DNA of 64,000 nucleotides from an uncultured Gammaproteobacteria bacterium (GTDB lineage: Bacteria; Patescibacteriota; Microgenomatia; CAYQLK01): positions 94,245 through 158,244 of the forward strand of contig CAYOLO010000001.1 in the NCBI GenBank assembly GCA_964404855.1. The letters are read 5' to 3'. A program made the translations under genes and the position numbers. Below the pieces are notes generated by a model. It saw only the letters and a program-made list of their open reading frames with translations, was not told where the DNA came from and did no database searches. Shown one piece after another: positions 2,942 through 63,399 of this stretch (position 1 is its first letter; each line of letters starts with the position of its first letter).

Positions 2942-2942
2942 A

Positions 2943-3869: not shown

Positions 3870-3870
3870 T

Positions 3871-4602
3871 TTATTTTTCTACTTCCTTCGATTCTATTCT
3901 ATAAATACAGTGTTCACAGGTGGGGTCGGAGTCGGGAAGTGTGTTGGATTCGAGACAGTCACGGGCTTTGAGAAGGGCGTCTTCTACCCAACTAGCATCT
4001 CCAGTGTAAGGGAAAATCTCGACGTCAAATTCTAGTTTGCCATCGAAGGCTTTACGGTCTGTTCTTCCGTTTGCATAAACGAAATATCCAGTATTACTAA
4101 CATCGAATCCGCTGGAACGAAGAAGCCATTGATAGATTTCTATTTGTCTTTTGTAACCATCCTTATATGGACCATCCATGTCGATGCCTTTTTCCGAGGC
4201 GGTGCTTTTGTAATCAACGACATGAAGTTGATTGTCTGGTGTAACCCAGATGTCATCAATTGCTCCAGTGACGATAAAATTGCTGAGTGGATGATGGACT
4301 TGGATGCCTTGAAAGTTCTCACGCCAAATATCCATTTTGGGATGCTGGAATGGAACTGCATTTATTTTGTAATGTTCCATTAATGGATGGGCGGTGCCGT
4401 TGGCGCGGTGGACATCAAATTCTTTTTTGAATAATGTATCGACTGCGGAGTTGAGATTAAAAGAAGGCATCGAAGGTCGACCGACACCGAGACGGCGGTC
4501 GAGATAAAAACATCTTGGACATCTAGTAAAATCTTCAAGTTTGGAACGACTTAGTTTGAATGGGACTTTTGGGTCGGGGTTGAAGATGTTGCGTTGACGC
4601 AT
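3871..4602 (-). CDS. Cas4/RecB-family PD-(D/E)XK nuclease with a 4-Cys cluster
   Basis: 243 aa. N-terminal CPRCFY and C-terminal CEHCIY cysteine pairs flank a VVDYKST...EIYQW core, giving a Cas4-like architecture. No cas genes or CRISPR array nearby. Confidence 0.55.
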   Translation of the reverse strand: MRQRNIFNPDPKVPFKLSRSKLEDFTRCPRCFYLDRRLGVGRPSMPSFNLNSAVDTLFKKEFDVHRANGTAHPLMEHYKINAVPFQHPKMDIWRENFQGIQVHHPLSNFIVTGAIDDIWVTPDNQLHVVDYKSTASEKGIDMDGPYKDGYKRQIEIYQWLLRSSGFDVSNTGYFVYANGRTDRKAFDGKLEFDVEIFPYTGDASWVEDALLKARDCLESNTLPDSDPTCEHCIYRIESKEVEK

Positions 4603-4661
4603 TGGTATATTTTGAATTCGTGTATTTTAGCTTATTGAGGCAAGTAATGGGAGGATTTGTT

Positions 4662-4833
4662 AAATATTATGGATTTTATTAGTTTTTTACATTACATTCT
4701 TTTTTCAATATGTTTTCTTGGCACACCAAAAATCCCAGCGTGATTTTTGTTTTTCACTTTTTCTTCGTTCTTTTGCTTAAAGACAAAAACCATGCCCACT
4801 CAGAAAAAGAGATCCAAGAAAACATATTGAGGG
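4662..4833. repeat. Structured intergenic repeat element, copy A (5' module, hairpin module variant 1 and 3' attgagg module)
   Basis: Shares ttcttggcacaccaaaaatcccagcgtgatttttgtttttcactttttc...ccatgcccac...aaaaagagatccaagaaa...attgaggg with copies B, E and D. Contains nested inverted repeats. Confidence 0.8.
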
Positions 4834-4880
4834 AGTATGAAGTTAAGGGGCTAATAAACAGTTAGAATACGTAGATACTA

Positions 4881-5336
4881 TTAATTTTGTTGAAGTTTTT
4901 TTAATTTTTTATAATCAATTTGTTCTACCTCTCCATGTTCGTTTACAAAAAATAAATATAGATTTAATTTATCGCACACATCGTATGGAATTCGCCTGAT
5001 TGCCATTTCTTTAAAAGAAATGGGGTATCCAACCCCGTACTTGTATCCATATTTATATCCCCTTACTCCAGTTCTTTTCATTCGAGTAATTATTTGACCT
5101 AACGCAAGATTAAAATGAACCTCGCGATGAGATGATGGAAATTTTGCTCTTGTACTAGCATCACCCTTACATTCAATTAAAAAGTACCTTGAGACCTTAT
5201 TGTTTTTTACTTTTATATCAACGCCGTGCTGTTTAAGTGTTTTTGATTGAAGATTTTTGCTCCACCCTGATTTTGATAAAAATTCAATTATCTTTTCTTG
5301 AATAAAGTCCTCGGGTATTAATATTTGTTTATTCAC
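4881..5336 (-). CDS. Hypothetical protein, possible small PD-(D/E)XK-fold protein
   Basis: 151 aa. GVDIKV...YFLIECKGD resembles a D-x(n)-E-x-K nuclease core. Lies 20 nt downstream of dnaJ on the same strand. Confidence 0.4.
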   Translation of the reverse strand: MNKQILIPEDFIQEKIIEFLSKSGWSKNLQSKTLKQHGVDIKVKNNKVSRYFLIECKGDASTRAKFPSSHREVHFNLALGQIITRMKRTGVRGYKYGYKYGVGYPISFKEMAIRRIPYDVCDKLNLYLFFVNEHGEVEQIDYKKLKKLQQN

Positions 5337-5355
5337 GTTTCTATTAACTAAGCTG

Positions 5356-6225
5356 TTAAAACCAACTTTTCTTTTTGCCGGCTTCTTGGAATTGTTTGAG
5401 TAAATCTTTTTGTTTGGAGTTAAGAGTTTTGGGAACTGTGATGGTAATTATGATGTAATGATCCCCTTTGGTTTTGGTGTTAATTTTTGTCACACCTTTG
5501 CCAGCAAGTCTTATTTTGCTATCTGGTTGAGTACCAGCTGGGACTTTGACTTTTACCATTCCATCGATTGTTTCTACTTCGATGACATCACCGAGAGCGG
5601 CTTGAGTAAAATCTATTTTGGCTTCGGTATAAATATCATGACCGCGACGAGCGAATTTGCTAGAAGCAGATACCTGACAAACAATTGCAAAATCTTTAAA
5701 ACGAATCGTAGTGCCGTCGTCAACACCAGCTGGGATTTTGACTTTTTGGCGTTTGCCGTTTATCTCGAACTCTTTGGTGACACCATGAACTGCTTCGTCA
5801 AAAGAAATATGCAGACCGTATTGTGGCATGCGCTGTCTGGAACCAAATGGAGATTGACCGCCGAACATCATGTCAAAAATATCAAAAGCATCTTCAAAAC
5901 CACCAAACCCTTGATTGCCTTGTGTGCTTGACCATTGATAATTAAACCCGCCTGGGTTGCCTGCACCACCTGGTCGGCCGCCACCAAAACCTGCATTTTG
6001 GTCAAAAGCAGAGTGGCCGTACTGATCGTAAGCTGCTCTTTTGTCCTTGTCAGATAAAATTTGATAGGCTTCGTTAACTTCTTTAAAACGACTTTCGGCA
6101 CCTGCGGTTTTGTCGACGTCAGGATGAGATTTGCGGGCTTTGGCCCTGTAAGCTTTTTTTATATCATCATCTGAGGCGTTTTTTGAAACGCCTAGAGTTT
6201 CATATGGATCTTTTTTGGTACTCAT
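5356..6225 (-). CDS. dnaJ: J-domain co-chaperone, DnaJ/CbpA-like, lacking the Cys-rich zinc-finger region
   Basis: 289 aa. J domain with HPD (KSHPDVDK), a Gly/Phe-rich linker and a DnaJ C-terminal substrate-binding region. No CxxCxGxG repeats. Confidence 0.8.
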
Positions 6226-6240
6226 GGTCTTTATTTAATT

Positions 6241-6482
6241 TAATATATTATTTTTCCAATTTACTTTTCTTGCACGTTCAAAATCCCAGCGAGATTTTGC
6301 ACTTTCACTTTTTGCTCGCTCTTTTGCGAACGCAAAATCCGTGCCCGCTTGCAAAAAGAGATCAAGAAAAATAAATCGGCGGGTAGATTTGGAAAAAAAC
6401 AAAAGGCGTCCACAGTAAAATATTGGGCTAGTTAGTTTGCTTATCAGCAAACGGGAGAGATCCACTAAAGAAAATTGAGAGA
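6241..6482. repeat. Structured intergenic repeat element, copy B (variant 1 core plus a partial variant 2 fragment)
   Basis: Core caaaatcccagcgagattttgcactttcactttttgctcgctcttttgcgaacgcaaaatccgtgcccgcttgcaaaaagagatcaagaaa, then caaaaggcgtccacagtaaaatattggg and gagatccactaaagaaaattgagag. Confidence 0.8.
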
Positions 6483-6520
6483 TAGGAGATTGGAATGAGA
6501 AAAATGGGAGATGCATGGGG

Positions 6521-7129
6521 TTATTTTTTGAATTTTTGACTTACACGAGGTTGTTTGTCTTCGCGAAAGTGGCGAGGACTTCTATCAGAAGGATGTTGAT
6601 AATATTGTCCAAAGACTCCAGGAGTTTTTTCTACGATATCGATTTCGCTTGTGTCGGTGAAAAATAATTCTATTGGAAATTCTTCCGGATCTTTGCCATC
6701 AAGATCAACCTCGCCAGATAATTGTCTTGCGATAGTTCTTTTACGTTTATCACCAAAAATTTCTTCCTCAGATCTAACGGCCTCACCCTGCATTTTGGCA
6801 ATTGGCAAAGCAGGAATAGATTTGTCTGGTCTTGGCATGGTAGGTTTGGGTTCGGCGGGCCTGGGTCTTGGGCGGCGGTCGATAACTAAATCTCGAGAAG
6901 ATCCTATTTTGGGTGCTTGTTTTGACTCTTCCCAAAGTTCGATTGCTAAGAAATATGTTTCAACCAGCCAACCACGATAACGACGATTGCCTTCGTCCTT
7001 AGCTTTTTGCGCATCACGCCTTAAAGCTTCTAGTCCTCGATGTGAAGATTGATATTGCTGAGCAACAACTAGTGCGGCTTGGCGTTTGTTTTGTTCTAAT
7101 TCTGATAATTCTGGATTTTCAAGTGACAT
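6521..7129 (-). CDS. Hypothetical protein (Pro/Arg-rich central region) embedded in the heat-shock operon
   Basis: 202-aa ORF between dnaK and dnaJ on the same strand. No recognisable motif. Confidence 0.5.
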   Translation of the reverse strand: MSLENPELSELEQNKRQAALVVAQQYQSSHRGLEALRRDAQKAKDEGNRRYRGWLVETYFLAIELWEESKQAPKIGSSRDLVIDRRPRPRPAEPKPTMPRPDKSIPALPIAKMQGEAVRSEEEIFGDKRKRTIARQLSGEVDLDGKDPEEFPIELFFTDTSEIDIVEKTPGVFGQYYQHPSDRSPRHFREDKQPRVSQKFKK

Positions 7130-7157
7130 TGTTTGATTTAATTAAATATTTTATAGG

Positions 7158-7176
7158 TTTTCTCCATATGGAGAAA
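7158..7176. promoter_or_regulatory. Perfect 16-bp palindrome TTCTCCATATGGAGAA, about 30 bp upstream of the start codon of the 202-aa gene
   Basis: tttctccatatggagaaa is read directly from the sequence. The homologous position in copy F is a hairpin with a different loop (ttctctaacgagaa). Confidence 0.5.
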
Positions 7177-7181
7177 CAGAG

Positions 7182-7319
7182 TTTTTTTAATCACACTTTT
7201 CACTTCAGCTCTTTGGACTGGTGTCGTCGAGCACCTTGTTTTGCCGTCGCAAAACAAAAGGCGTTCAAAGTGTGATTGGAAGTAAAGGAAACAAAATGCG
7301 TTCATAACGAAATTGAGAG
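7182..7319. repeat. Structured intergenic repeat element, copy C (variant 2 hairpin module, no 5' module)
   Basis: A 130-nt stretch nearly identical to 16381..16480. The outer 11-bp inverted repeat is AATCACACTTT...AAAGTGTGATT. The inner hairpin is ttttgccgtcgcaaaa. Confidence 0.85.
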
Positions 7320-7367
7320 TGATGACAAAAATGTCGGAGATAGTTTTTGGAAGAATTTGGCGAGTAA

Positions 7368-7703
7368 CTATTTCCTTTCTTTTTCTTGGTCTTCTGGATG
7401 TTTGGCTCTAATTGCAGCGACGGCCTCTCGTCGCATCCTAAGAATATTGAAGTTAATTATTCGTCCACGCTCGTCTTTGAAAGGAAGATTAGAAGCAGGA
7501 AGCGGAGATTCAGGAACGTTGACACCAGAAAGAGCTTCTTTGTGGTTGAGACGAGTAAGCGCTTCGGATATTTGGCCTTGAGTATAACCATCAGCACTGC
7601 CAGCTGGACTATCATCGGCTTTGTCCCAAAGAGCTTCTAGCTCTTCACGAGTTTTGGATTCTAGCCCAGTTGGTTTGGGTTGTGCTTCTGGCGTAAATGC
7701 CAT
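7368..7703 (-). CDS. Hypothetical protein directly downstream of dnaK
   Basis: 111-aa ORF, 10 nt after the dnaK stop on the same strand. Its GC content is higher than that of its neighbours. Confidence 0.5.
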   Translation of the reverse strand: MAFTPEAQPKPTGLESKTREELEALWDKADDSPAGSADGYTQGQISEALTRLNHKEALSGVNVPESPLPASNLPFKDERGRIINFNILRMRREAVAAIRAKHPEDQEKERK

Positions 7704-7713
7704 TTTTATTTTT

Positions 7714-9621
7714 TTACTTTTTTTCTTCTACGACTTCACCTTCTTGAGTCTCGCCTTCGGCGGTAGGCTCTTCGGATGGTTTTTCTTCTGATTCAGAGGC
7801 TTGGTCATTTGAAGCTTGTGGGCCTTCGGCTTGGTCATACATTGCCTGACCTACTTTTTGAGTCGAGGTACTAAGCTCATCGGTAGCTTTTTTGATGGTA
7901 TCGATATCATCAGCCTCGAGAGCTTCTTTAGCTAGTTTGACCTTTTCTTCAACCTCGGTTTTGACCTCGGCACTAACCTTGTCGCCAGCATCTTTGAGAG
8001 CTTTTTCGCTCTGGTAGATTAAGCTTTCGGCATTGTTGCGAACCTCAATGAGCTCTTTTTTCTTGTCATCTTCGGCCTTGTGAGCTTCGGCTTCTTTCAT
8101 CTTGGTTTCGACTTCTTCTTTACTTAGTGAAGTAGAACCTGTGATGGTAATCTTCTGCTCTTTGCCTGTAGCTTTGTCTTTGGCTGAGACAGCAAGGATT
8201 CCATTAGCGTCAATGTCGAATGTAACTTCGACTTGTGGAACACCGCGAGGTGCGGTTGGAATTCCATCAAGAATAAATCTTCCTAAACTCTTGTTGTCGG
8301 TAGCCATTTCGCGCTCACCTTGTAGGACGTTAATCTCTACAGAGGTTTGGTTGTCGGCCGCAGTTGAGAAAATCTGCGACTTGGAAGTCGGGATCGTACT
8401 GTTGCGGTCGATAAGCGGAGTGCGAACACCACCTAGGGTTTCGAGACCTAGGGTAAGCGGTGTGACATCAAGGAGAAGAATGTCTTTGACGTCTCCAGAT
8501 AGAACAGCTCCTTGGATAGCCGCGCCGATGGCGACAACTTCGTCAGGATTAATACCTTTGTTAGGATCTTTGCCAAAGAATTCTTTGACCTTCTCCTGAA
8601 CTTTTGGCATTCTGGTCATTCCACCTACGAGGATAACTTCGTCGATTGCCGTTGCTTCGACACCAGCATCTTTAAGGGTGTTTTTGACTGGAGTTAGGGT
8701 TTTTTCGATTAAATCTGTAACTAGCTCTTCGAGTTTTGCCCTACTTAGTTTGGTCTGCATGTGCTTAGGTCCAGAGTTGTCGGCCGTAAGATACGGAAGA
8801 CTTATTTCGGACTCTGTTGCACTAGATAGTTCGATTTTGGCTTTTTCGGCTGCGTCGCGAATTCGCTGCATTGCTGCTTTGTCGCCTGAGATATCAACAC
8901 CTTCGGTATTTTTGTACTCAGTTACAAGATGGTCGATGATAACTTGGTCAAAGTCGTCGCCTCCGAGGTGAGTGTCACCGCCGGTTGCTTTAACTTCGAA
9001 AACTCCATCGCCTAGCTCTAGAACAGAGACGTCGAATGTTCCACCACCAAGGTCGTAGACTACGATAGTGTGAGCATTTTTCTTGTCTAGCCCGTAAGCC
9101 AGAGCGGCTGCGGTTGGCTCGTTGATAATACGTTTGACATCAAGACCTGCGATTTCGCCTGCTTGTTTGGTAGCCTGACGCTGTGCATCGTCGAAGTATG
9201 CAGGAACAGTAATAACTGCTTCTTTGACATCTTCGCCTAGATAGCTCTCGGCATCTTTTTTGAGTTTGGCTAAGATCATTGCTGAGATTTCTTGTGGGGT
9301 ATAGGTTTTGCCGTCGACTTTGACGTCAGCAGAACCGTTTTTGCCCTCGACAACTTCGTAAGGAATCCACTTGAGTAGACTCTGAACTTCTTTGTCTTTT
9401 AATTTACGCCCCATTAGACGCTTAACACTGAAAATCGTGTTTTTTGAATTGACGACGATTTGGCGTTTGGCCACATCTCCGACAATGTTTTTGGTTGGAT
9501 CAACAACTGAAGGTACAGTATTACGACCTTCGGCTGAGTGGATAACTTTTGGTTCTCCACCTTCCATTACTGAAACAACCGAGTTGGTTGTACCTAGATC
9601 AATTCCTATTATTTTTGACAT
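7714..9621 (-). CDS. dnaK: Molecular chaperone DnaK (Hsp70)
   Basis: 635 aa. N-terminal [18 protein letters not shown] and the other conserved Hsp70 signatures, plus an acidic C-terminal tail. Confidence 0.97.
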
Positions 9622-9644
9622 ATATTTTGTCTCCTTTTTTTATT

Positions 9645-10118
9645 TTACTTATTTTTTCTATTAACTGTGACTGTTGCGGGACGAATAACCTTGTTGTTAA
9701 GCGTGAAGCCGTTTTTTAGTACTTCGGCAATAGTGCCGTCGGGCTCCCCTGTTACTTCGGTAACCGCCTCGTGGAAGTGCGGATCAAACTCGGTTACACC
9801 AAGTTCGATACTTATTTCCTGCAAACCCTCGTCCTCAAAAACCTTGCGGAACTGAGCGAGCACCATATCAAGCCCTGGGTCTTTGAGATGGTTTTGGGCA
9901 GTTAGCAGGTTATCGAAAACTTCAAGAAATTTGTAGAGAATGACGGAGCCAGAAAATTCTAATATCTGCTCTTTTTCTCTTTCTACTCTTTTTTGAAGAT
10001 TCTGATAATCGGCTAAAGCACGATGATAAGATTCTTTGTAATCAAGATTGGCTTCGACCTCACTAAGGTTTTGATCTATTTCGGGGTCGATTTTGGTTTT
10101 TGGTTTTTTGGTTTTCAT
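9645..10118 (-). CDS. grpE: Nucleotide exchange factor GrpE
   Basis: 157 aa. RALADYQNLQKRVEREKE, FDPHFHEAV and VIRPATVTV are GrpE signatures. Confidence 0.9.
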   Translation of the reverse strand: MKTKKPKTKIDPEIDQNLSEVEANLDYKESYHRALADYQNLQKRVEREKEQILEFSGSVILYKFLEVFDNLLTAQNHLKDPGLDMVLAQFRKVFEDEGLQEISIELGVTEFDPHFHEAVTEVTGEPDGTIAEVLKNGFTLNNKVIRPATVTVNRKNK

Positions 10119-10165
10119 GGTTTTTGTTTGGTGTTTTGACTTAATAACTAATACTGGCTAACTAA

Positions 10166-10897
10166 TTACCAGTTGCGCGAAACCTCATTAAGAAGGGATC
10201 CGAAATAGCGCAAAGTTGGGATGACGGTTTGGTATGGCAAACGACATGGACCAACAACGCCAATATAGCCTTCGCGTCCGTTGCCTGAGGAATATTTGGT
10301 AAAAGCAAATCCACATGGGACGAACTCAGCTAGAGCTAACTCATCACCAAAAACAACATGGACAACTTCGTCGCCATAGGTTCTACCAAAGACGTCGTTT
10401 AGTAATTCGTATCTATCGATAAGTCCCAGAACTGCCTTGGTTAAATCGATGTCGTAGAACTCCGGTTTGTCTAAGATGTTGGACATACCTGCAGCGTAAA
10501 CATCACCCGTTGCACTGGTAGCTAGAGCAAGAGTGTTGGTCTGCTCAGCGAGTGCGCGGGTAGCTTGACGCATTAGTTTGTCGTACTCAAATCTTTGATC
10601 CCAAAGACTTTCTTTGATACTAACCTCGTCGCGAACGGAGAGGTTTTTTTCTTCCATTAACTGGTTAATGTACAACTTGATGGCTTGTGAGGTTGGAATA
10701 CGCCCAGCAGATGTATGAGGCTGAACGAGATAACCCACCTTGGTTAAAGTAGCCATTTCGTTTCGAATAGTTGCGGGCGAAACACCAAGCCCTGCAATTT
10801 TTTCGATTGATTCTGAACCAACTGGTTCAGCTGTATCGATGTAGCGCTCTACGATTGATCGTAGGAGTTTGCGCTGGCGGTCTGTAAGATCCGTCAT
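10166..10897 (-). CDS. hrcA: Heat-inducible transcription repressor HrcA (short form)
   Basis: 243 aa. N-terminal winged-helix region LTDRQRKLLRSIVERYIDTAEPVGSESI, typical of HrcA. It is the first gene of the hrcA-grpE-dnaK operon, with a CIRCE element upstream. Confidence 0.85.
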   Translation of the reverse strand: MTDLTDRQRKLLRSIVERYIDTAEPVGSESIEKIAGLGVSPATIRNEMATLTKVGYLVQPHTSAGRIPTSQAIKLYINQLMEEKNLSVRDEVSIKESLWDQRFEYDKLMRQATRALAEQTNTLALATSATGDVYAAGMSNILDKPEFYDIDLTKAVLGLIDRYELLNDVFGRTYGDEVVHVVFGDELALAEFVPCGFAFTKYSSGNGREGYIGVVGPCRLPYQTVIPTLRYFGSLLNEVSRNW

Positions 10898-10933
10898 AAA
10901 TTGTTAGTAACACAAGTTTCAGTCTGCGAAAAC

Positions 10934-10975
10934 TTGTATTAGCACTAATGTACTACAAGTGCTAAATTGTGTCAA
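10934..10975 (-). promoter_or_regulatory. Putative sigma-70 promoter of the hrcA operon (TTGACA-N17-TACATT) overlapping CIRCE
   Basis: The minus strand reads TTGACAcaatttagcacttgtagTACATT. CIRCE spans the spacer and the -10 element. Confidence 0.6.
10939..10965. promoter_or_regulatory. CIRCE operator (HrcA binding site) TTAGCACTA-N9-AAGTGCTAA
   Basis: ttagcactaatgtactacaagtgctaa is a 9-N9-9 inverted repeat matching the CIRCE consensus TTAGCACTC-N9-GAGTGCTAA. It lies 42 nt upstream of the hrcA start. Confidence 0.85.
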
Positions 10976-11102
10976 TACTTATGTATAAATAGGAAAAATT
11001 TAAGGTTTTTCTTCTAAAGAAACAATGGGTTAATTCTTTTATTAAAAGATAATTTTTTATATTTCCTTCTTCACTTTTTGCTGAGTGGTATAGCTAGGCT
11101 AG

Positions 11103-11265
11103 AAAATATTAATTTAATTACAATTTGCTTTTCAATTCGCTTGCTCGCACACTTGAATCCCCTGCGAGGATTCTGCATTTTCAGTTTTTGTTTACTGTTT
11201 TTACCTAATGGTAAAAAGCCATGCCAGTTAAACAAAAACAGATCTTCGCAAAGCAAATTGAGAGG
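11103..11265. repeat. Structured intergenic repeat element, copy D (diverged variant 1)
   Basis: aatttaattacaatttgcttttcaat...gaatcccctgcgaggattctgcattttcagtttttg...ctttttacctaatggtaaaaag...ccatgccagt...caaattgagagg. The hairpins are kept by compensatory substitutions relative to copies A, B and E. Confidence 0.7.
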
Positions 11266-11293
11266 ATAAGATAAAGGAAAAGATTAAGAAAAA

Positions 11294-11314
11294 GGCCCCG
11301 AGGTTAGTCGGGGC
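11294..11314 (-). terminator. Intrinsic terminator hairpin ggccccga-ggttag-tcggggc
   Basis: GC-rich stem followed by a T-tract on the minus strand (tttttcttaatct), at the 3' end of the GC-rich membrane-protein gene. Confidence 0.55.
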
Positions 11315-11582
11315 GGTCGTTGGTGAGGCTGCCACCTGTGAGAACCGTGTACGCGAAACCCAACAAGATGTGCAGAAGCGAAAAAATTAGCCACATGTAA
11401 GCAGTAGTAAACATGGATAGAATCCAGAATGTTTTCCACTGCCCATATGGTAGTTCGTCGTCGAATGTGTAGATTGCCCCTACCGTTAATCCGACAGCAA
11501 AAGTAGCTGCGGGAATAAGAATAAAGGCGAATCCGTGAAGGTATTTGCGCAGGCAAATGCCTATCAGAATCGGCGCAGACAT
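11304..11582 (-). CDS. Small multi-pass membrane protein (possibly the 3' part of a frameshifted gene)
   Basis: 92 aa with two to three hydrophobic helices in a GC-rich region. The upstream ORF 11564..11728 lies in the +1 frame and encodes another TM helix. Confidence 0.4.
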   Translation of the reverse strand: MSAPILIGICLRKYLHGFAFILIPAATFAVGLTVGAIYTFDDELPYGQWKTFWILSMFTTAYMWLIFSLLHILLGFAYTVLTGGSLTNDRPD

Positions 11583-11728
11583 GGGAGCGAGTGTCCAGAT
11601 GAGTCTGGTGTGAGGTAGTCTTGGTCTGTGTCGAAAGATTTGAGACCAAGATAGAATCCGGCTTCAGCAAAAACTGCAGCGATCAGCGTCAAATAAATGA
11701 CGAACTGGACTAGACATAATCGATTCAT
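11564..11728 (-). pseudogene. Possible 5' fragment of a frameshifted membrane-protein gene (MNRLCLVQFVIYLTLIAAVFAEAGFYLGL...)
   Basis: Overlaps the start of ORF 11304..11582 in a different frame. Joining the two would give a single 3-4 TM protein of about 146 aa. Confidence 0.3.
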
Positions 11729-11803
11729 CTCCGCCTCTTTTTTGTTTTGAAGGAACCTTAAGTGTGGAATTGTAGCTACTTGTGAGTAAATTGGCAAGAA
11801 AAT

Positions 11804-11825
11804 GCCCTCCGTTTGACGGGAGGGC
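11804..11825 (-). terminator. Hairpin gccctccg-tttg-acgggagggc downstream of gene 11859..12230
   Basis: GC stem with a one-base bulge, followed on the minus strand by attttcttgcc. Confidence 0.4.
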
Positions 11826-11858
11826 TTAATAGGATGAACTCTGGCGATGGTGCTTAGC

Positions 11859-12230
11859 TTAGTGCCAGTCAGGGACGATGATGTGGAAGAAGTACTTGCC
11901 TCTCGAGTCAGGATCGTCTACCTGCTCCTCGATTTCTTCCAGCTCCTCGTGGGTCACGAAGGCTTCGCGAGGACTGTCTTCGACCCAGACGCTGGCGGTG
12001 AAGTCGACCTTGCCTGGAACAATGACGTAGACCTTGATGTGAATCTTGTGATTGTCGAGTCCGCCGTAGTACGAGAAGTACCAGTGTGGAGAGTCGCTTG
12101 CGGGTTCGTACCGGATGAGATTGGCCTCGAAAGGCGCTCCAATCCGATGGGCGTCAGCGATCTGGGCGAGTGTCAAAGGGTTCGACACATAGTGGCCAGG
12201 CGCTAAGACGCGGGTTGCGACCGTGGACAA
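11859..12230 (-). CDS. Hypothetical protein (GC-rich island)
   Basis: 123-aa ORF at about 55-60% GC. A terminator hairpin lies downstream on the minus strand. The antisense plus-strand ORF was rejected. Confidence 0.5.
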   Translation of the reverse strand: MSTVATRVLAPGHYVSNPLTLAQIADAHRIGAPFEANLIRYEPASDSPHWYFSYYGGLDNHKIHIKVYVIVPGKVDFTASVWVEDSPREAFVTHEELEEIEEQVDDPDSRGKYFFHIIVPDWH

Positions 12231-12420
12231 GGAAACACCTTACCTTTGTAATGTTCTGACCCTGATTATATCTCTTTTGAGGCTAAATGTCAAATACTAC
12301 AGGATACTTTTGCTTGCAAAAGGATCATGCAGGACGTAGTGAGAATTTATGAAATAACGAGCTTTACCGAAGTTATGAATAAATACGAGCGAGTAACTAT
12401 AGGCACTGGAGGGCGTTGGG

Positions 12421-12576
12421 AAATATATTAATTTTAATTACAATTTTTTTTCAATCCACTTTCTTGGCACAACAAAAATTCCAGCGTGATTTTTGTTTTT
12501 CACTTTTTGCTCGCTCTTTTGTTTACACAAAAACCATGCCCACTTACAAAAAGAGATCCAAGAAAGTAAATTGAGG
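12421..12576. repeat. Structured intergenic repeat element, copy E (5' module plus variant 1), located inside the GC-rich island
   Basis: aaatatattaattttaattacaattttttttcaatccactttcttggcacaacaaaaattccagcgtgatttttgtttttcactttttgctcgctcttttgtttacacaaaaaccatgcccacttacaaaaagagatccaagaaagtaaattgagg. Confidence 0.85.
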
Positions 12577-12577
12577 A

Positions 12578-12620
12578 GATAGAAAAAAGACAAAAAAGGC
12601 CCTCCTTTTTAGGGGAGGGC
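12578..12620 (-). terminator. Intrinsic terminator gccctcc-tttttagg-ggagggc with a U-tract on the minus strand
   Basis: 7-bp GC stem. Its flank aaaaaagacaaaaaag gives a tttttt run for minus-strand transcripts ending after gene 12642..13157. Confidence 0.65.
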
Positions 12621-12641
12621 TTGGAGGGAGGAGAAATCGTT

Positions 12642-13157
12642 TCAAACGATTCTTCCATCGTGACGGTTGGCGAGCATCCTGCGGACTTTCTCATAAGTAG
12701 TAATAAGCTTGTCCTCTTCGACGCCGCCGTTGTGTCGAAGGTTTTGGCGACCAGAGCCGTAGCAGATAGGAAAAATTCCACCTGCCTTGTCGCCAAGGTA
12801 GTTGAGAACCGTGAGCAGTTCCTGGCCTGCAGCTTGGAAGCGCAGGAAGGGATCTTTCATCGCCTCGTAGTACGAGTCGAGTACTGCGACCATTGCCTGG
12901 TCTTCATCGTTTTCCGCTTCCTTCTGTTTAGCTTGCCAAGCATCGAACTCTTCGCGGACGAAGCGCTCTTTAAGTTCGCCGTGGAGCTTGTCCCACTCAG
13001 CCTTGATGGCATCGTGGCGAGGACGGAAATCGATCATGACCTGTTCGATTTTGAGGCCGTAATTCCCCCATGCTTTGACGGCGTCTTCGTAGCCATCGCG
13101 AGCCTCGAGGAATTCGACCAGGACTGAGCCTAGTCGCTCGTAAGGGTTCTGAACCAA
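12642..13157 (-). CDS. Hypothetical protein (GC-rich island)
   Basis: 171-aa ORF at about 55% GC. Supported by the downstream terminator and by co-orientation with its neighbours. Confidence 0.5.
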   Translation of the reverse strand: MVQNPYERLGSVLVEFLEARDGYEDAVKAWGNYGLKIEQVMIDFRPRHDAIKAEWDKLHGELKERFVREEFDAWQAKQKEAENDEDQAMVAVLDSYYEAMKDPFLRFQAAGQELLTVLNYLGDKAGGIFPICYGSGRQNLRHNGGVEEDKLITTYEKVRRMLANRHDGRIV

Positions 13158-13178
13158 GTTGCTGTTACTCCTTTTGAC

Positions 13179-13916
13179 TTACCACCACGTGATCCTAGCA
13201 AAGAGTGCTCTGCCAACGATTTTGCGCGGTGTTGCGGACAAGCCTCTGGTTTGCTGAGCCAGATGCCTGCGAAGGCTAATTGGCGCGTACTCGTTGACGA
13301 TCGAGTGGGTTTTGCCATCTCTTACGGCTCGGAGAAAGTCCCCGGCGGTGTGGCCGTCGAAGTACGTGACGGTTGAGCCGACATGCTCGAGGAAGTGCGC
13401 GTCTGAAGAGCCTATTTCAGGCAGATGCCAGCCTGAGCTGTTGAACTGTCTGACTAGCGGGTCACGAGCACGTCCTGCCGGTGTTGGATTACCAACTTCG
13501 ACTCCATCCAAATAGACCTGTGGATCGGGAGAGTTTTGAATTCTCCTGATTGTTTCGGAACTGAAACTGAGCGGAACTCTGGCCATTGGATGAGCCGGAA
13601 TCGCTAAGCCTCCGTGTTCGTGGATGAACTTGATTGTGTCTTCGGCCGAAGCGAGAAGTGGTGGTTGATCGGTGATGCCAAGAGCAATGAGATGTCCGTG
13701 ACGAGTAGTGATTTCTACACCACAGATGACCTCAAAGCGATAAGCACCCCGCTCTCTTAGTGAGACGGCTTGAATGCCGCCTCTGATGTCGTCGTGTTCA
13801 GTGACGGCAATCACATCCAGCTTGGTGTGCTCTTGAACGTATTCAAAAAGCTCGCCGAGGCTAAATGTTCCGTCGCTGGACTTGGTGTGAATATGCAGAT
13901 CGGCTAGACCCACCAA
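13179..13916 (-). CDS. PHP-domain metal-dependent phosphoesterase (TrpH/YciV-like)
   Basis: 245 aa. N-terminal DLHIHTKSSDG is the PHP motif-I His/Asp signature, and the conserved His residues continue (EHDD, HGH, AHP). Confidence 0.8.
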   Translation of the reverse strand: MVGLADLHIHTKSSDGTFSLGELFEYVQEHTKLDVIAVTEHDDIRGGIQAVSLRERGAYRFEVICGVEITTRHGHLIALGITDQPPLLASAEDTIKFIHEHGGLAIPAHPMARVPLSFSSETIRRIQNSPDPQVYLDGVEVGNPTPAGRARDPLVRQFNSSGWHLPEIGSSDAHFLEHVGSTVTYFDGHTAGDFLRAVRDGKTHSIVNEYAPISLRRHLAQQTRGLSATPRKIVGRALFARITWW

Positions 13917-14341
13917 TCCCCCCTTTTTAGCAGAAAGCGCTCGATTTTTTCTGAGGTGATGTCACTGTCAGAAAAGCCTAAACCTTTGACAATGAAAAGT
14001 CCCTGGGCGCTGGATAGCAGGGTGAGTTGTTGAGCTATGTCGAGTTGACATCTTTCTAGCTCAGCAAGGAATGCAGGAGTGGCGAGCTTTGCAAGCTCAA
14101 GTTCTGTCTTTGAGACGCCACAGTTGTGTCTAACACAAGTAGCGACTGCCCCAAGAATGCCAAGGTGATGTTCGGTATGAGTAAGGCCTTTCCGGCAGCG
14201 TTCCCAGTAGACAGCTTGGCCGAAAAGTGTTGCTTGTCGGTGGATGATGTTGAGGTCGACGGTCGGGGTGAGGAATGAGGGCACATTAGCCATTGCTTGT
14301 TTAGCAATTGCTTCGAACTGGGCAAGAATGTCGTCAGACAC
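13904..14341 (-). CDS. Hypothetical protein co-transcribed with the PHP phosphoesterase (13-nt overlap)
   Basis: 145-aa ORF at about 55% GC with a His-rich segment (LTHTEHHLG). Its stop overlaps the start of the PHP gene. Confidence 0.5.
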   Translation of the reverse strand: MSDDILAQFEAIAKQAMANVPSFLTPTVDLNIIHRQATLFGQAVYWERCRKGLTHTEHHLGILGAVATCVRHNCGVSKTELELAKLATPAFLAELERCQLDIAQQLTLLSSAQGLFIVKGLGFSDSDITSEKIERFLLKRGDWWV

Positions 14342-14417
14342 AAGTTCTCCTTTTAACTTAAAGTGCTAGGAGTTAACTAAGGTCAGGATTTTAGCTTATT
14401 GCAAAGCTGAAAACAAA

Positions 14418-16175
14418 TTATTTACGAAGAAGGGCGGTAAAGACTTCTTGAGAGATTTGAATATTACCGATGCTTTTGAGTCTTTTTTTACCTTTTTTCT
14501 GTTTGTCTAGAAGTTTATTTTTGCGTGTAACGTCTCCACCGTAGAGTTTGGCCGTGACGTCTTTTCTAAAAGCCGGTACTGTTTCTCTGGCGATTATTTT
14601 GCCTCCGACAATAGCCTGAATGGGTAGTGAGAACTGCTGACGCGGGAGGACTTCCTTGAGCTTGAGGGCTGTAGCACGACCGGAACTTTCGGCTCGAGAG
14701 CTGGGTACAATTTGGGCAAGAGCGTCTAGTGGGTCGTTATTTATGTAGATTTCTAGCTTGCTAACTATGACGGATTCGTAGCTAGTGACTTCAAAGTTAA
14801 GCGAGGCGTAACCTTGGGTGCGGCTTTTGAGTTCGTCATAAAAATCGGTAATTATTTCTGAAAGTGGAATTTTGTAGGTAGCTTTTATCTGATCAGCGAG
14901 GTTTTCCACAGCAAGCTGAACTCCCCTTTTGGTGTGGATAAGTTCGCCAATTGGACCAAGATACAGTGAAGGAGCAATTATTTCGACTGTGGCGATTGGC
15001 TCGAGGATTTCCATTGTGGAGGCTGGTAGTTGAGAGGTTTTGGATATTTCGGTGCCATCAAGAAGTTTGTAATTGACTGAGGGTGAGGTTGCAATAAGGT
15101 CGAGATTATATTCACGACTAAGCCTTTCGATGGTTATTTCTGAGTGAAGAAGTCCTAGAAAACCACAACGAAAGCCTTGTCCAAGCGAAGGTGAAGATTC
15201 GGCAGAGTATTCGAGTGCATAGTCATTGAGTTTGAGTTTACCCATTGCTTCTCTTAACGGTAAGAAGTCCGAAGGGTCGATTGGATAAAGTGAAAGATAG
15301 ACAACTGGAAAAGCAGGTTTGTACCCAGGAAGTGCCTCTGGAGATTGGTTTTTGTGGGTAATTGTGTCACCGACACGCGCGTTTTCGATGGTTTTGAGGG
15401 CTGTTACAAAAAAACCTACTTCACCTGAAGAGAGTGTGTCGACTTCTTTGACAAGAGGTGTGAGTTTGTAGATTGAAAGGATTTCTGTATCGGCATTGGT
15501 GGCTAGAAACTTGATTTTGTCGCCTTTTTTGAACTGACCATCGACGACTTTGACGGCTGTAACTACACCTTTGTAAAGATCGTAGAGAGAGTCGAAGACA
15601 AGTGCGCGATTAATATCGGCTTGAGTTGGGGTCGGAGGTGGAACTCTTTTGATTATTTCTTCGATAAGCTCGATGACATTTGTGCCTGTTTTTGCGGAAA
15701 CTTGCAGGATTTCTTTGTCCAAAAATCCTAAACCCTGAAGCTCTCTAATTGTTCTATCTACTTCGGCGCCTGGAGCGTCTATCTTGTTAACGACTGGAAT
15801 AATTGCGAGATTTTCGTCGAGGGCATGATTGAGGTTAGCAATGGTTTGAGCCTGAACACCTTTGGTGGCGTCGACAAGCAAGACTGCCCCTTCGCAGGCA
15901 GATAATGAACGGGAGACTTCGTAGCTAAAATCTACATGCCCTGGGGTGTCGATAAGATTAAGCAAATATTCGGTATTATTAAGCGTGTAATGAAGAGAAA
16001 TAGCTTTGAGTTTGATTGTGATTCCCCGCTCTTTTTCGAGATCCATTGAGTCGAGAAGCTGTTTGTTGTACACACTGGTATTGACCGCGTGAGTGATCTC
16101 AAGAATACGGTCGGCTAGAGTTGATTTGCCGTGGTCAATGTGGGCAATAATGGCAAAGTTGCGAATATTTAACAT
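14418..16175 (-). CDS. lepA: Elongation factor 4 (LepA)
   Basis: 585 aa. IRNFAIIAHIDHGKSTLADRIL G-domain motifs and the LepA C-terminal domain. Confidence 0.95.
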   Translation of the reverse strand: MLNIRNFAIIAHIDHGKSTLADRILEITHAVNTSVYNKQLLDSMDLEKERGITIKLKAISLHYTLNNTEYLLNLIDTPGHVDFSYEVSRSLSACEGAVLLVDATKGVQAQTIANLNHALDENLAIIPVVNKIDAPGAEVDRTIRELQGLGFLDKEILQVSAKTGTNVIELIEEIIKRVPPPTPTQADINRALVFDSLYDLYKGVVTAVKVVDGQFKKGDKIKFLATNADTEILSIYKLTPLVKEVDTLSSGEVGFFVTALKTIENARVGDTITHKNQSPEALPGYKPAFPVVYLSLYPIDPSDFLPLREAMGKLKLNDYALEYSAESSPSLGQGFRCGFLGLLHSEITIERLSREYNLDLIATSPSVNYKLLDGTEISKTSQLPASTMEILEPIATVEIIAPSLYLGPIGELIHTKRGVQLAVENLADQIKATYKIPLSEIITDFYDELKSRTQGYASLNFEVTSYESVIVSKLEIYINNDPLDALAQIVPSSRAESSGRATALKLKEVLPRQQFSLPIQAIVGGKIIARETVPAFRKDVTAKLYGGDVTRKNKLLDKQKKGKKRLKSIGNIQISQEVFTALLRK

Positions 16176-16245
16176 AAAAATTTAAGTTTAGTGGCGCTAT
16201 TCTAGCAGGAAATGAGGGTTTTGTGCGTAATTGGGAGATTTTTAT

Positions 16246-16518
16246 AAATATTTATTTTTAAATTACATTCTTTTTTCAATCTACTTTCTTGGCGCACTGT
16301 AGTTTTCTCTAACGAGAAACAAGGTTTTTAGACTTCCCTTTTGTTGAGAGATTTGGTTTTCTTCTACGAAGAAGCAAAGTTTTTTTAATCACACTTCTCA
16401 CTTCAGCTCTTTGGACTGGTGTCGTCGAGCACCTTGTTTTGCCGTCGCAAAACAAAAGGCGTTCAAAGTGTGATTAGGAATAAAGGAAAAGAAAGAGATC
16501 CACTAAAAGGTATTGAGG
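16246..16518. repeat. Structured intergenic repeat element, copy F (5' module, linker hairpins, variant 2 and a 3' gagatccactaaa..attgagg module)
   Basis: The longest copy. It combines the 5' module seen in A and E with the complete variant 2 module seen in C. Confidence 0.85.
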
Positions 16519-16611
16519 AATATGGGAAAGAAACGGTGGTTTTGATTTGGGGAAGGAGAAGGAAAAGAATCTATTACTTAGACGAAACTAAACTCGGAGG
16601 AGTACGGTACT

Positions 16612-62577: not shown

Positions 62578-62583
62578 TTTTAA

Positions 62584-62877: not shown

Positions 62878-62883
62878 AGTTTT

Positions 62884-63341: not shown

Positions 63342-63399
63342 AATTTGCGTGGGGAATTATATGCCTAATGATTGAGTAAATGCAAGCGCAAAAAATACC

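Follow-up and report, generated by a model that had tools for sequence, protein, structure and literature searches.

Six intergenic elements, A to F, in the 64,000-nucleotide stretch of DNA analyzed here (the window) turn over rapidly. At shared sites, one core type replaces another, elements nest within each other and fragment, and it is the chromosome strand, not transcription, that their polarity tracks. These behaviors add to a first-pass annotation that had described a modular, highly structured repeat family, a description that alignment of the modules and a fold with covariation support. The family is small and, judged from sequence comparisons, lineage specific and outside described families. 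Our best explanation, held tentatively, is that the elements are dispersed mosaic repeats, a variant of the REP/BIME, ERIC, Correia, and attC-like kind, whose movement or exchange would pass through one strand in a folded, single-stranded state.

All six elements lie where they had been placed. A repeat finder groups A (4688-4825), B (6239-6376), and E (12434-12571) into one family and matches C (7167-7296) to F (16365-16494) with 92% identity over 130 nt; D is a diverged variant 1 (V1), and MAFFT aligns A, B, D, and E across the whole V1 core (∼135 nt). The AT-rich module recurs in A, D, E, and F in a repeat search, and the end modules recur too. Similarity extends beyond low-complexity runs: AAAAAGAGATCCAAGAAA, with ≤3 mismatches, has 4 matches versus 0.43 expected. 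The strand originally written is not the one that folds best; its reverse complement is, so the AT-rich module, taken as the 5′ end, is 3′-terminal in the folded element. On this folding (minus) strand, a pyrimidine-rich leader ending in CTCAAT is followed by the core, then ATTG and an A run, and then at least one small H hairpin or an AT-rich, promoter-like module. The core is either V1, a three-way junction of ∼125 nt, or V2, a closed two-hairpin fold of ∼90 nt. The parts in the window are as follows.

4662-4698, minus strand: AT-rich module of A, ATTGAAAAAAGAATGTAATGTAAAAAACTAATAAAATCC on the minus strand (repeat family D3)
4699-4837, minus strand: V1 core of A (cmsearch, 157 bits; alignment)
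6250-6386, minus strand: V1 core of B (cmsearch, 139 bits; alignment)
6387-6490, minus strand: distal module of B (repeat D6)
7157-7177, minus strand: H hairpin of C, GTTTTCTCC-ATAT-GGAGAAAC, then CAGAG and a T run on the plus strand
7189-7277, minus strand: V2 core of C (92% identical to F; seven-copy alignment)
7300-7319, minus strand: leader of C (...CTCTCAATTTCG on the minus strand)
11103-11125, minus strand: AT-rich module of D (TTGAAA-N18-TAATAT on the minus strand, 11135-11106)
11126-11268, minus strand: diverged V1 core of D (cmsearch, 101 bits; fold, −36.4 kcal/mol, z −2.8)
12421-12444, minus strand: AT-rich module of E (TTGAAA-N18-TAATAT on the minus strand, 12454-12425)
12445-12581, minus strand: V1 core of E (cmsearch, 145 bits; fold computed)
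16246-16523, minus strand: composite F (weak full-length V1 match by cmsearch, 20.7 bits)

The minus strand of A folds at −32.9 kcal/mol (z −2.5) into a three-way junction made of an outer stem P1 (GTTTTCTTGG/CCAAGAAAAC), P2 with an inner hairpin P2a, and P3. Read on that strand, A lies 44 nt past the stop codon of a 151-aa gene and upstream of a PD-(D/E)XK nuclease gene (3871-4602), and its AT-rich module has a promoter-like match on the plus strand (4686-4714). On the minus strand, 24 nt separate the 3′ end of the B core from the dnaJ start codon (6225) downstream. The distal module of B contains a hairpin (GTTTGCTGATAAGCAAAC), a fragment resembling the 5′ part of V2 (GGACGCCTTTTG), and a second copy of the leader and P1 5′ strand (CTCTCAATTTTCTTTAGTGGATCTC, minus strand); it terminates in a repeated element end, GAGATCCACTAAAG.AATTGAG. 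This same module also follows V1 in the related loci L157, L151/L146, and L174. The V2 fold of C consists of an outer stem (AATCACACTTT/AAAGTGTGATT), a hairpin (CCTTTTGTTTTGC-GACG-GCAAAACAAGG), and a GCTC/GAGC stem that closes the conserved loop GACGACACCAGTCC; in L169, the stems of the V2 copy are compensated (AAATTGACTTC/GAAGTTAATTT and GCCC/GGGC). The H hairpin pattern GTTTTCTN{5,12}AGAAAC has 3 matches versus 0.06 expected, and H hairpins with compensated stems follow cores in F, L063, L112, L126, L169, L172, and L174. The leader motif of C opens every element on the minus strand.

Composite F is a V1 “shell” whose core has been replaced by two small hairpins and V2, with an outer-stem half and leader on one side and an outer-stem half and AT module on the other. 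In plus-strand coordinates, the AT module (16246-16269) and a V1 outer-stem half with GGCGCA (16270-16297) are followed by H hairpins 1 (16302-16320) and 2 (16355-16375), the V2 core (16387-16475), and the other outer-stem half with the leader GAGATCCACTAAAAGGTATTGAGG (16495-16518). F is flanked by lepA on the minus strand and by a 78-aa gene on the plus strand; a composite in L157, in a different context, is 91% identical to F over 220 nt.

Covariation supports the V1 fold. The proposed structure pairs 93.8% of cells, and in 18 of its 47 pairs both partners changed; no shuffle out of 500 did as well, and slid controls gave at most 6 pairs with both partners changed. P1 can be wholly different, yet complementary, between copies (ACTTTCTTGG/CCAAGAAAGT, CCCCTTATCTGG/CCTGATAAGGGG, TTTAGTGG/CCACTAAA; in L172, CAACCTGCC.AG/CT.GGCAGGTTG), and D has compensated stems of its own (GAATCC/GGATTC, GTTTTTGTTT/AAACAAAAAC, TTTTTACC/GGTAAAAA). 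The supposed 3′ module, gagatccactaaa, does recur, but it is really one strand of P1, a covarying variant of ccaagaaagt. The loop and junction motifs GGGCAYGG, GTGAAA, CGCTGGG, and GTGCC are nearly invariant. Several features identify the minus strand as the one that folds: it has 22 G·U-type cells (11 columns), compared with 9 (6 columns) of the converse type; a possible tertiary helix contributes a further 13 and 0, respectively; the intermediate in the five columns with both Watson-Crick states is always a minus-strand wobble; and minus-strand folds are more stable by 2 to 10 kcal/mol. The wobble asymmetry is the same in every copy regardless of context. On the other hand, a five-pair extension of P1 (T run versus GAGGA) would favor the opposite strand.

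Compensatory stem changes would not be expected of a duplex protein-binding site, and this bears on the idea that the elements are DNA-level promoter and operator regions of a heat shock regulon around hrcA-grpE-dnaK-dnaJ. Four of the six elements flank heat shock genes, and the minus-strand sequence of the AT module is TTGAAA-N17/18-TAATAT. The real HrcA operator, however, is a CIRCE-like TTAGCACT-N11-AGTGCTAA (10940-10966) that overlaps TTGACA-17-TACATT; it is separate from and downstream of D, and it is conserved in L169 and L172 although the element differs there. Moreover, groEL (43692-45317) has no element, and other copies adjoin rpoD, tuf/glpX, sufS, recD-like, NUDIX, and two-component genes. 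Contradicted on all these counts, the operator reading is very hard to credit.

A multicopy, RNA-like fold with covariation and conserved loops could instead mark each core as an independently transcribed small RNA gene, encoding paralogous trans-acting regulators or an unrecognized ribozyme or ribonucleoprotein RNA. By eye, a −10-like hexamer (CATATT, TATAAT, or TTAAT) stands just ahead of CTCAAT on the folding strand in many copies, and 8 copies carry on their other strand a conserved TACAAT, 7 nt ahead of the outer stem, which in E takes the form TTGGGA-17-TACAAT (plus strand, across 12416-12444). Yet the folding strand has no −35 element at the proper spacing, and the TACAAT promoter would transcribe the worse-folding strand and is missing in about half of the copies (B, L063, L126, L128, and L162). 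No intrinsic terminator follows the core, and no promoter-plus-terminator pair brackets it, on either strand; several copies start 10 to 50 nt past an upstream stop codon within operons, and fragments and chimeras are common. The discrete small RNA suggested in the first-pass annotation is thus poorly supported, and we judge it improbable.

Comparison of shared sites shows turnover and mosaicism. In L166, the dnaJ/nuclease junction is an empty site where the two genes overlap (TAATG). The same junction contains V1 and H in L063 and the 151-aa gene and A in the window; L169 has an FtsK-gamma gene with V2 there, and L175 has a two-component system. Upstream of hrcA are V1 in the window and L172 and V2 in L169; upstream of dnaJ, V1 in the window and L063 and V2 in L174, whose DnaJ is 97% identical to that of the window, and in L175; and upstream of lepA, F in the window and a D-type V1, 91% identical to D, in L138. 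In all, V1 in one genome and V2 in another occur upstream of four genes, hrcA, dnaJ, lepA, and the PD-(D/E)XK nuclease gene. Fragments with only GTGCC, the P1 3′ strand, and ATTGAAAAA lie after complete elements in L172, L174, and L157.

In our preferred reading, these noncoding, nonautonomous elements, built of interchangeable modules, act like DNA that moves or recombines and not like fixed sites of regulation: at a few permissive intergenic sites, they are inserted, replace one another, and nest inside each other. Movement or exchange would proceed via the folded single-stranded form of one particular DNA strand, recognized by a putative trans-acting protein; together, these would explain the compensatory stems, the strand-specific wobbles, and the chromosome-strand polarity. 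Copies inside operons would be carried passively in mRNA, and the AT-rich module may supply a promoter to the downstream gene. Against this reading, shared sites are occupied even between genomes that differ by 18% in DnaJ, and, upstream of hrcA in L172, a strongly diverged copy has retained the fold and the loops GGGCATGG and CGCAGGGG; such persistence and retention would also be expected of an RNA useful to the host.

The main rival reading treats the cores as host-selected cis-acting RNA structures in mRNAs, comparable to REP/ERIC elements in operon transcripts, with V1 and V2 interchangeable for the same job. The gene-sense fold would protect upstream mRNA 3′ ends, make an intercistronic processing site, or insulate transcription units. 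Covariation and wobble bias match the transcribed strand in the window and the whole dnaK/lepA block, where all copies are gene-sense (six of six in the window; also in L063, L169, L172, L174, and L175). A, B, and C lie within operon-like runs with no terminator ahead of them, one variant or the other is retained at shared sites in genomes 82 to 97% identical in DnaJ, and the loop and junction motifs are near-invariant. However, about 5 of 11 independent contexts have the folding strand antisense to their neighboring genes or diverging from them (L146/L151, two copies in L157, and L112). Some copies are preceded by an intrinsic terminator and followed by a promoter belonging to the next gene, so that only read-through would transcribe them: D, between a terminator (11295-11314) and the promoter of hrcA with its CIRCE operator; E, which begins ∼20 nt past the terminator of a 171-aa gene (12599-12620) and has a perfect TTGACA-17-TATAAT promoter (12293-12265) ∼130 nt downstream; and the L148 copy. 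The empty site in L166 shows that the element is dispensable at that junction, and conservation is about equal in paired and unpaired columns (entropy, 0.50 versus 0.57). Polarity also goes with the chromosome strand and not with transcription. Overall, we regard a cis-acting RNA role as rather unlikely.

The polarity is consistent. Wherever a contig has at least two copies, all share one orientation (six in the window; three each in L169 and L174; two each in L063, L175, L157, and L146), and the orientation relative to neighboring genes is mixed. In 9 of 10 loci (plus- and minus-strand genes averaged), the G-rich strand of the chromosome is the one written in the first-pass annotation; about nine independent contexts underlie this test, and no reversal of GC skew occurs at rpmH/dnaA. 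For comparison, IS608 and ISDra2 have the template of the lagging strand as their target (PMC5027513, PMC6006769), and attC bottom strands lie along the template of the leading strand in 25 of 30 sedentary chromosomal integrons (PMC5371416).

If the G-rich strand is leading, the folding strand would be on the leading-strand template, like attC bottom strands. By analogy with integron attC, the elements might be structure-specific recombination sites of a cassette system, in which a recombinase would recognize the folded strand (CAAT/ATTG boxes, variable stem) and insert or excise small accessory genes. The single orientation per contig would fit, as would a variable stem that keeps its complementarity between invariant outermost boxes. 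Small adjoining genes vary between close relatives (151-aa, 123-aa, 202/206-aa, FtsK-gamma, two-component system, and NUDIX), and a block of a response regulator, a kinase, and a 169-aa gene between two elements in L157 is found elsewhere, inverted, in L063 and L174. But the boxes RYYYAAC/GTTRRRY are absent, the V1 three-way junction with conserved loops differs from the single bulged hairpin of attC, and no integrase was found in the 64 kb or in related loci. The housekeeping operons hrcA-grpE-dnaK and lepA, which lie between sites and are conserved in the element-free outgroup L173, argue that the region is no cassette array. Together with the fragments, the nonmatching P1 halves of F indicate exchange within elements, not at a fixed crossover point. 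We think a cassette system unlikely.

Some observations also weigh against our preferred reading of mobile or exchanging mosaic repeats. No transposase, Y1/HUH enzyme, integrase, or reverse transcriptase turned up in the window or in any of the related loci examined. Apart from CAAT/ATTG, no terminal sequence was constant, and target-site duplications were not seen. The elements are neither a CRISPR array nor an insertion sequence, as had been stated. The label “MITE or intergenic punctuation element” was in the right neighborhood, but a classical MITE is unsupported, given the absent target-site duplication and a “terminal inverted repeat” (P1) that varies in sequence between copies while remaining complementary. 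Copy number also looks low, at 1 or 2 per draft genome in four metagenome-assembled genomes with a strict pattern, unlike that of a burst-type MITE. An RNase H/RVT_3-like open reading frame (58370-58777) is a conserved gene of housekeeping type that occurs in L177 too.

Pattern searches and cmsearch found no further copy in the other 48 kb of the window, and the elements matched none of 4,227 Rfam families, even at E values up to 5, nor any viral contig, phage, or plasmid. Additional copies do occur in relatives, which defeats the refutation test set in the first-pass annotation. True copies are limited to those with 82 to 97% DnaJ identity, and the outgroup L173 (61%) has the same gene order and no element. 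On this sequence evidence, the family is confined to a single narrow clade of CPR genomes that resemble Curtissbacteria. The best named relatives of DnaJ and YidC are from “Candidatus Curtissbacteria,” in agreement with the CPR host proposed earlier.

Six intergenic elements, A to F, form one family between 4662 and 16523. A repeat finder and MAFFT recovered the groupings proposed in the first-pass annotation: a V1 core of ∼135 nt in A, B, and E and, in diverged form, in D; a V2 core in C and F, which are 92% identical over 130 nt; and an AT-rich, promoter-like module in A, D, E, and F. The elements, 120 to 280 nt long and 0.7 to 6 kb apart, fill the six large gaps in a 12-kb run of minus-strand genes (murJ, lepA, a 145-aa gene, a PHP-domain gene, a 171-aa gene, a 123-aa gene, an uncertain 128-aa ORF, hrcA, grpE, dnaK, a 111-aa gene, a 202-aa gene, dnaJ, a 151-aa gene, a PD-(D/E)XK nuclease gene, a NucS-like nuclease gene, hsdM, and hsdS). 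Up to one fifth of the 12-kb stretch around the main chaperone operon consists of such modules. Pattern and covariance-model searches found no further copies in the other 48 kb of the window, and gaps there are mostly <130 nt. Two exclusions made from the sequence alone hold. The family is not a CRISPR array, the copies being long, unevenly spaced, and separated by genes, with no short identical regularly spaced repeats; nor is it an insertion sequence (IS), as no transposase, and no autonomous element carrying one, was found in the 64 kb or in ∼200 kb of related loci. Features of the window referred to below are as follows.

105-5336: variable defense-type island downstream of dnaJ, with type I hsdS/hsdM and genes for a NucS-like nuclease, a PD-(D/E)XK nuclease, and a NOV_C-like 151-aa protein
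4602, 6225, 7129, 10897, and 16175, minus strand: nuclease gene, dnaJ, 202-aa gene, hrcA, and lepA, the first genes after elements, all without a Shine-Dalgarno sequence
7320-7367: 48-nt tail after the 111-aa gene
10940-10966: CIRCE-like inverted repeat TTAGCACT-N11-AGTGCTAA, overlapping TTGACA-17-TACATT, directly upstream of hrcA (region 10940-10975)
11008-11064: AT-rich block near D
11295-11314: intrinsic terminator adjoining D
11300-14400: stretch of ∼50% G+C in a 35% genome, carrying the 123-aa, 171-aa, PHP-domain, and 145-aa genes
12265-12319: consensus-promoter block; the genes that it drives differ between the window and the related contig L162
12329-12404: 75-nt block near E
12599-12620: intrinsic terminator adjoining E
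61744-64000: classical origin neighborhood, with yidC-yidD-rnpA-rpmH (minus strand), DnaA boxes at 63400 and 63431, and dnaA (plus strand)

All four V1 copies of the window fold independently into the same architecture: an outer stem of 12 to 17 bp (P1), an arm (P2, CTTTTTG/CAAAAAG) enclosing the hairpin P2a (TTTTG..CAAAA), and a hairpin P3 (AAAATC..GATTTT). In a minus-strand alignment of 13 distinct copies from the window and related contigs, 93.8% of cells are paired and 18 of the 47 pairs show changes on both sides; none of 500 shuffles was as good, and slid controls reached at most 6 pairs with both-side changes. P1 can differ totally in sequence between copies yet remain complementary (ACTTTCTTGG/CCAAGAAAGT, CCCCTTATCTGG/CCTGATAAGGGG, TTTAGTGG/CCACTAAA, and CAACCTGCC.AG/CT.GGCAGGTTG), only its outermost CAAT/ATTG being constant. 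The junction and loop motifs GGATCTC, GGGCAYGG, GTGAAA, CGCTGGG, and GTGCC are almost unchanged, except that a diverged copy in L172 has GAAGCCCTA for GGATCTC. V2 is likewise a closed fold: in L169 its outer stem differs but is complementary, its inner hairpin is replaced, and the stem around the conserved loop GACGACACCAGTCC is GCCC/GGGC, versus GCTC/GAGC in the window. A tertiary helix, GGCAYG x YGUGCC, is possible, with 47 of 48 cells compatible, but it shows wobble changes only and zero double changes. The elements do not appear to be coding, since the ORFs that overlap B, D, and E (93, 61, and 98 aa) lack conservation of frame or strand across copies; stems vary by compensation and loops by indels.

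The first-pass annotation had read the elements on the plus strand of the window, which we now correct. Most non-Watson-Crick stem cells on that strand are A.C, which read as G.U (or G.T) on the opposite strand; the minus strand is favored by 22 cells in 11 columns and the plus strand by 9 cells in 6 columns, and the putative tertiary helix contributes 13 more for the minus strand against none. In the five columns with both Watson-Crick states, the intermediate is a minus-strand wobble every time, and the bias is the same in each copy. Minus-strand folds are also more stable. Our reading of the element therefore runs along the minus strand: a leader ending in CCTCAAT, the core, ATTG plus an A run, and then one or more small H hairpins or the AT module, with the caveat that the plus-strand T run could pair with the GAGGA run and lengthen P1 by five T.G/T-A pairs.

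D, E, and a copy in L148 begin 20 to 25 nt past intrinsic terminators, and D and E are followed downstream by the consensus promoter that belongs to the next gene (for hrcA, TTGACA-17-TACATT with the CIRCE-like operator; for the 123-aa gene, a perfect TTGACA-17-TATAAT), whereas A, B, and C sit within operon-like runs. A riboswitch, T-box, or RNA thermometer leader is rejected because D and E precede the genes' own promoters and some copies are antisense or lie between convergent genes. The CIRCE-like repeat is a genuine heat-shock operator separate from D; no CIRCE/HrcA operator (TTAGCACTC-N9-GAGTGCTAA) lies within any element, groEL is without an element, and other copies flank unrelated genes, so that the elements are not heat-shock operators either. 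The cores lack a GC-rich hairpin with a U run on both strands and hence are not intrinsic terminators; the H hairpin is AT-rich, with a T run that begins 4 to 5 nt past the stem on the plus strand only. Three further candidates, each prompted by a local feature, were discarded: a hammerhead-like core (GTGAAA junction), for which CUGANGA is absent and Rfam gives no hit; a sigma-54 promoter (TGGCAC), for which there is no TTGC at N5; and a class C group II intron (position of D and E after terminators), the elements being far too small and without a domain V hit. Comparison with Rfam, proposed at first pass, matched no family to the elements: no covariance model scored near its gathering threshold, the 64 kb gave zero hits at that threshold, and a search of 4500-16700 at E values up to 5 returned only four chance-level hits (E ≥1), none on a core. 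No tRNA or tmRNA genes were found.

The hrcA gene is short (243 aa), and its CIRCE-like repeat is kept in L169 and L172. Operon-internal genes such as dnaK do have AGGAGA; the dnaJ start codon lies 5 nt beyond an AAATAA hexamer, which suggests a leader that is very short or absent. In the G+C-rich stretch, the 171-aa, PHP-domain, and 145-aa genes adjoin lepA also in L169 and L172, and the window has in addition the 123-aa gene, the uncertain 128-aa ORF, and elements E and D. The four short intergenic modules listed (7320-7367, 11008-11064, 12265-12319, and 12329-12404) recur elsewhere and in other orientations in relatives; the clade's intergenic DNA is largely an assembly of shared modules.

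Orientation of the elements follows the chromosome and not the genes. Outside the window, copies adjoin rpoD, tuf/glpX, sufS, a recD-like helicase gene, and NUDIX, two-component, and FtsK-gamma genes, and are oriented either way relative to these neighbors, some lying between convergent genes or antisense. Copies sharing a contig always have one orientation, and the strand first read is the G-rich contig strand at 9 of 10 loci, with genes of both orientations averaged. On this same strand the element is C-rich, and so it is not the source of the contig's G-skew. At the origin neighborhood, GC skew does not change sign at rpmH/dnaA in the window, nor within at least 9 kb on either side in two relatives (L177 and L178); either oriC is elsewhere or the skew of this clade is unusual.

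Comparison of related loci revealed rapid turnover, even between genomes at 97% DnaJ identity, along with small accessory, restriction-modification, and nuclease genes. V1 and V2 replace each other at the same sites, and the junction between dnaJ and the nuclease gene is the most variable of those compared.

Upstream of hrcA, window (D) and L172: V1
Upstream of hrcA, L169: V2 and two H hairpins
Upstream of dnaJ, window (B) and L063: V1
Upstream of dnaJ, L174 (97% DnaJ identity) and L175: V2
Upstream of lepA, window: composite F
Upstream of lepA, L138: D-type V1
dnaJ-nuclease junction, L166: genes overlap (TAATG), element absent
dnaJ-nuclease junction, L063: V1 and H
dnaJ-nuclease junction, window: 151-aa gene and A
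dnaJ-nuclease junction, L169: FtsK-gamma gene and V2
dnaJ-nuclease junction, L175: two-component system

Chimeras and fragments are frequent among the copies. F is a V2 core within a V1 shell; the halves of its P1 do not match at two positions in the center, which would fit an origin from different parents. Fragments made of GTGCC, the P1 3' strand, ATTG, and the A run stand behind complete elements in L172, L174, and L157, and larger blocks, e.g., window 11039-11145 and F, are found in other contexts in L174 and L157.

The elements may behave as mobile or recombining DNA, a reading that draws on mixed gene orientation, chromosome polarity, the empty site, core-for-core replacement, and nesting; covariation and strand-specific wobble pairs suggest that a folded single-stranded form matters. 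Folded single strands have precedents in attC bottom strands and IS200/IS605 ends (PMC5371416, PMC5027513, PMC6006769, PMC3333891). Against mobile DNA stand the failure to find any enzyme in the window or related loci examined, an apparently low copy number, and sites that are persistently occupied, and close behind it comes the main rival, that the elements are RNA useful to the host within transcripts, as a stabilizer, processing site, or insulator. The first-pass interpretation stands insofar as the family is lineage specific, structured, and, in a broad sense, MITE-like in a host of the CPR; its sRNA idea is weak. As in MITEs, presence/absence polymorphism is seen, the dnaJ-nuclease junction holding an element in L063, the window, and L169 but none in L166. 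Fixed terminal inverted repeats are absent, CAAT/ATTG alone being constant while the outer stem of 12 to 17 bp varies but is complementary, and copies in different contexts have no direct repeats, i.e., no target-site duplications, at their boundaries, which are fuzzy because of extra modules. Movement through a folded single strand would make the elements markers of an unknown DNA-processing activity in the CPR and of a mechanism by which genes are exchanged locally; should the elements be functional RNAs, V1 and V2 would be two structured RNA motifs, both new and well supported by covariation, which RNA family databases could take up. CPR genomes are tiny and streamlined, and the literature searched yielded no account of structured repeats dispersed in them.

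Among known systems, the elements resemble REP/BIME, ERIC, Correia, and BOX repeats in lifestyle and have some formal properties of attC sites, but they do not appear to belong to any of these. Like REP/BIME and REPINs (moved by RAYT Y1/HUH transposases), they are intergenic, noncoding mosaics of a few recurring modules, often located between convergent genes or within operons, and both contain small imperfect palindromes; for REP/BIME, processing in single-stranded form has been proposed (PMC3333891). The H hairpins (GTTTCTYY..RRAGAAAAC) are of REP size and occur in tandem with linker fragments, but the V1 and V2 cores are not REP-like: REP/BIME hairpins are 20 to 40 nt, whereas the main modules of the elements are multihelix folds of 90 to 135 nt, in apparently low copy number and without a conserved GTAG-type tetranucleotide. 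No RAYT gene was seen in the window or related loci examined.

ERIC/IRU and Correia (NEMIS/CREE) elements are transcribed imperfect palindromes of 100 to 160 bp from enterobacteria and Neisseria, with fixed terminal inverted repeats and TA duplications. Size, a closing stem spanning the whole element, a transcribed intergenic place, and promoter-like hexamers at one end are shared; in contrast, the closing stem of our elements varies in sequence, no duplication is seen, and an internal three-way junction carries conserved loops. To our knowledge, polarity relative to the chromosome strand has not been described for ERIC or Correia elements. In Streptococcus pneumoniae, BOX elements consist of boxA, boxB, and boxC modules with a variable number of internal units. 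They have in common with A to F an A-B-C style modularity, strong predicted folding, and an intergenic site, but there is no sequence similarity, and our elements have two alternative cores that substitute for each other at one and the same place in the genome. What is unusual about the family is its polarity and the exchange of V1 for V2.

The attC sites of integrons (e.g., VCRs in Vibrio chromosomal integrons) are alike in keeping structure over sequence, in short invariant outer boxes, in a single folding strand, and in the single orientation of sites among small neighboring genes that vary between strains; attC polarity follows the replication strand (PMC5371416), and our elements also have one orientation per contig and G-rich-strand polarity. 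However, attC boxes are RYYYAAC...GTTRRRY (AAC/GTT), versus (Y)TCAAT...ATTGA(R) (CAAT/ATTG) in all copies here, and attC is a single imperfect hairpin of 57 to 141 nt with extrahelical bases and a variable loop, whereas V1 is a three-way junction with conserved loops. Unlike attC arrays, the elements are interleaved with conserved housekeeping operons; no Phage_integrase-type hit was obtained among the window ORFs scanned, and no IntI was found in the window or related loci examined. It is conceivable, though we consider it quite improbable, that the V1 and V2 folds are attC-like sites of a strand-polar, structure-specific CPR recombination system with an unrecognized recombinase, which would capture, swap, and delete small accessory genes beside essential operons (hrcA-dnaK-dnaJ and lepA) and be integron-like but unrelated to IntI/attC.

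PATEs, gene-less derivatives of IS200/IS605 moved as single strands, are alike in having one-strand hairpins and neither terminal inverted repeats nor target-site duplications, and IS200/IS605 orientation is tied to replication (PMC5027513, PMC6006769). Unlike PATEs, whose subterminal hairpins are similar at both ends, the elements have H hairpins at one end only, and their best-folding strand is apparently C-rich, by the usual skew rule not the lagging-strand template. No hit to TnpA/Y1_Tnp was found in the window or related loci examined. We conclude that the family is none of the following: IS, CRISPR array, riboswitch-type leader, HrcA operator, or Rfam family.

Copies exist in relatives, for which the first-pass annotation had proposed a covariance-model scan, both in MAGs and at metagenome loci. 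A 22-nt degenerate pattern run on one genome per species gave 109 matches, of which five, in four MAGs, are real; a gapped pattern over JGI metagenomes gave 46 matches, and a covariance-model search placed V1 at 11 loci. Viral contigs, phages, and plasmids showed no similarity to the elements. Related loci were reached from DnaJ and YidC homologs to their contigs, and those syntenic with the window have DnaJ identities of 97, 88, 83, 83, and 82%. The outgroup L173 (61%) retains murJ-lepA...hrcA-grpE-dnaK-dnaJ, with no element. The closest named relatives by DnaJ and YidC are “Candidatus Curtissbacteria,” and the gene content (LytR-CpsA-Psr, FemAB, VanW, DUF4012, and PMT_2) is CPR-like, in agreement with the host assigned at first pass. 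Synteny with the window and Curtissbacteria-closest proteins overrule the titles “uncultured Gammaproteobacteria” and “Pseudomonadales” of the public MAG records with true copies (L024, L063, L077, L109, and L112); judged by their sequences, these records look mistitled.

Several other observations concern the neighborhood of the elements. The defense-type island has counterparts in L166 (1686-6356), L170 (3938-6839), and L172 (1-1405), with other restriction-modification and nuclease genes, GmrSD, and Fic. A stand-alone FtsK-gamma-domain protein of 106 to 118 aa recurs near elements (L112, 323-1262; L166, 6798-7734; L169, 10945-11286; L170, 9282-9806), often with a treble-clef zinc-finger protein of 174 to 189 aa; in L112 it begins 59 nt from a V1 copy. 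Upstream of intact dnaJ, L174 (1251-1438) and L175 (956-1143) carry a 26-codon remnant of the dnaJ 5' end (MADKKDPYSILGV..., of the L063 allele type), separated from it by a repeat of ∼110 nt with three hairpins (GTTTCAGGTATCCTGAAACGCAGGCTTGTAGCTCAAACTGAGC...), which also adjoins V1 in L159 and L162; remnant and repeat resemble a scar left in dnaJ by replacement or integration. Finally, most of the Logan contigs with identical hrcA (L001 to L010, ten runs) stop 181 to 186 nt upstream of hrcA, at the repeated block beside D, mostly ∼25 nt or less from D itself; in practice, the elements break short-read assemblies.
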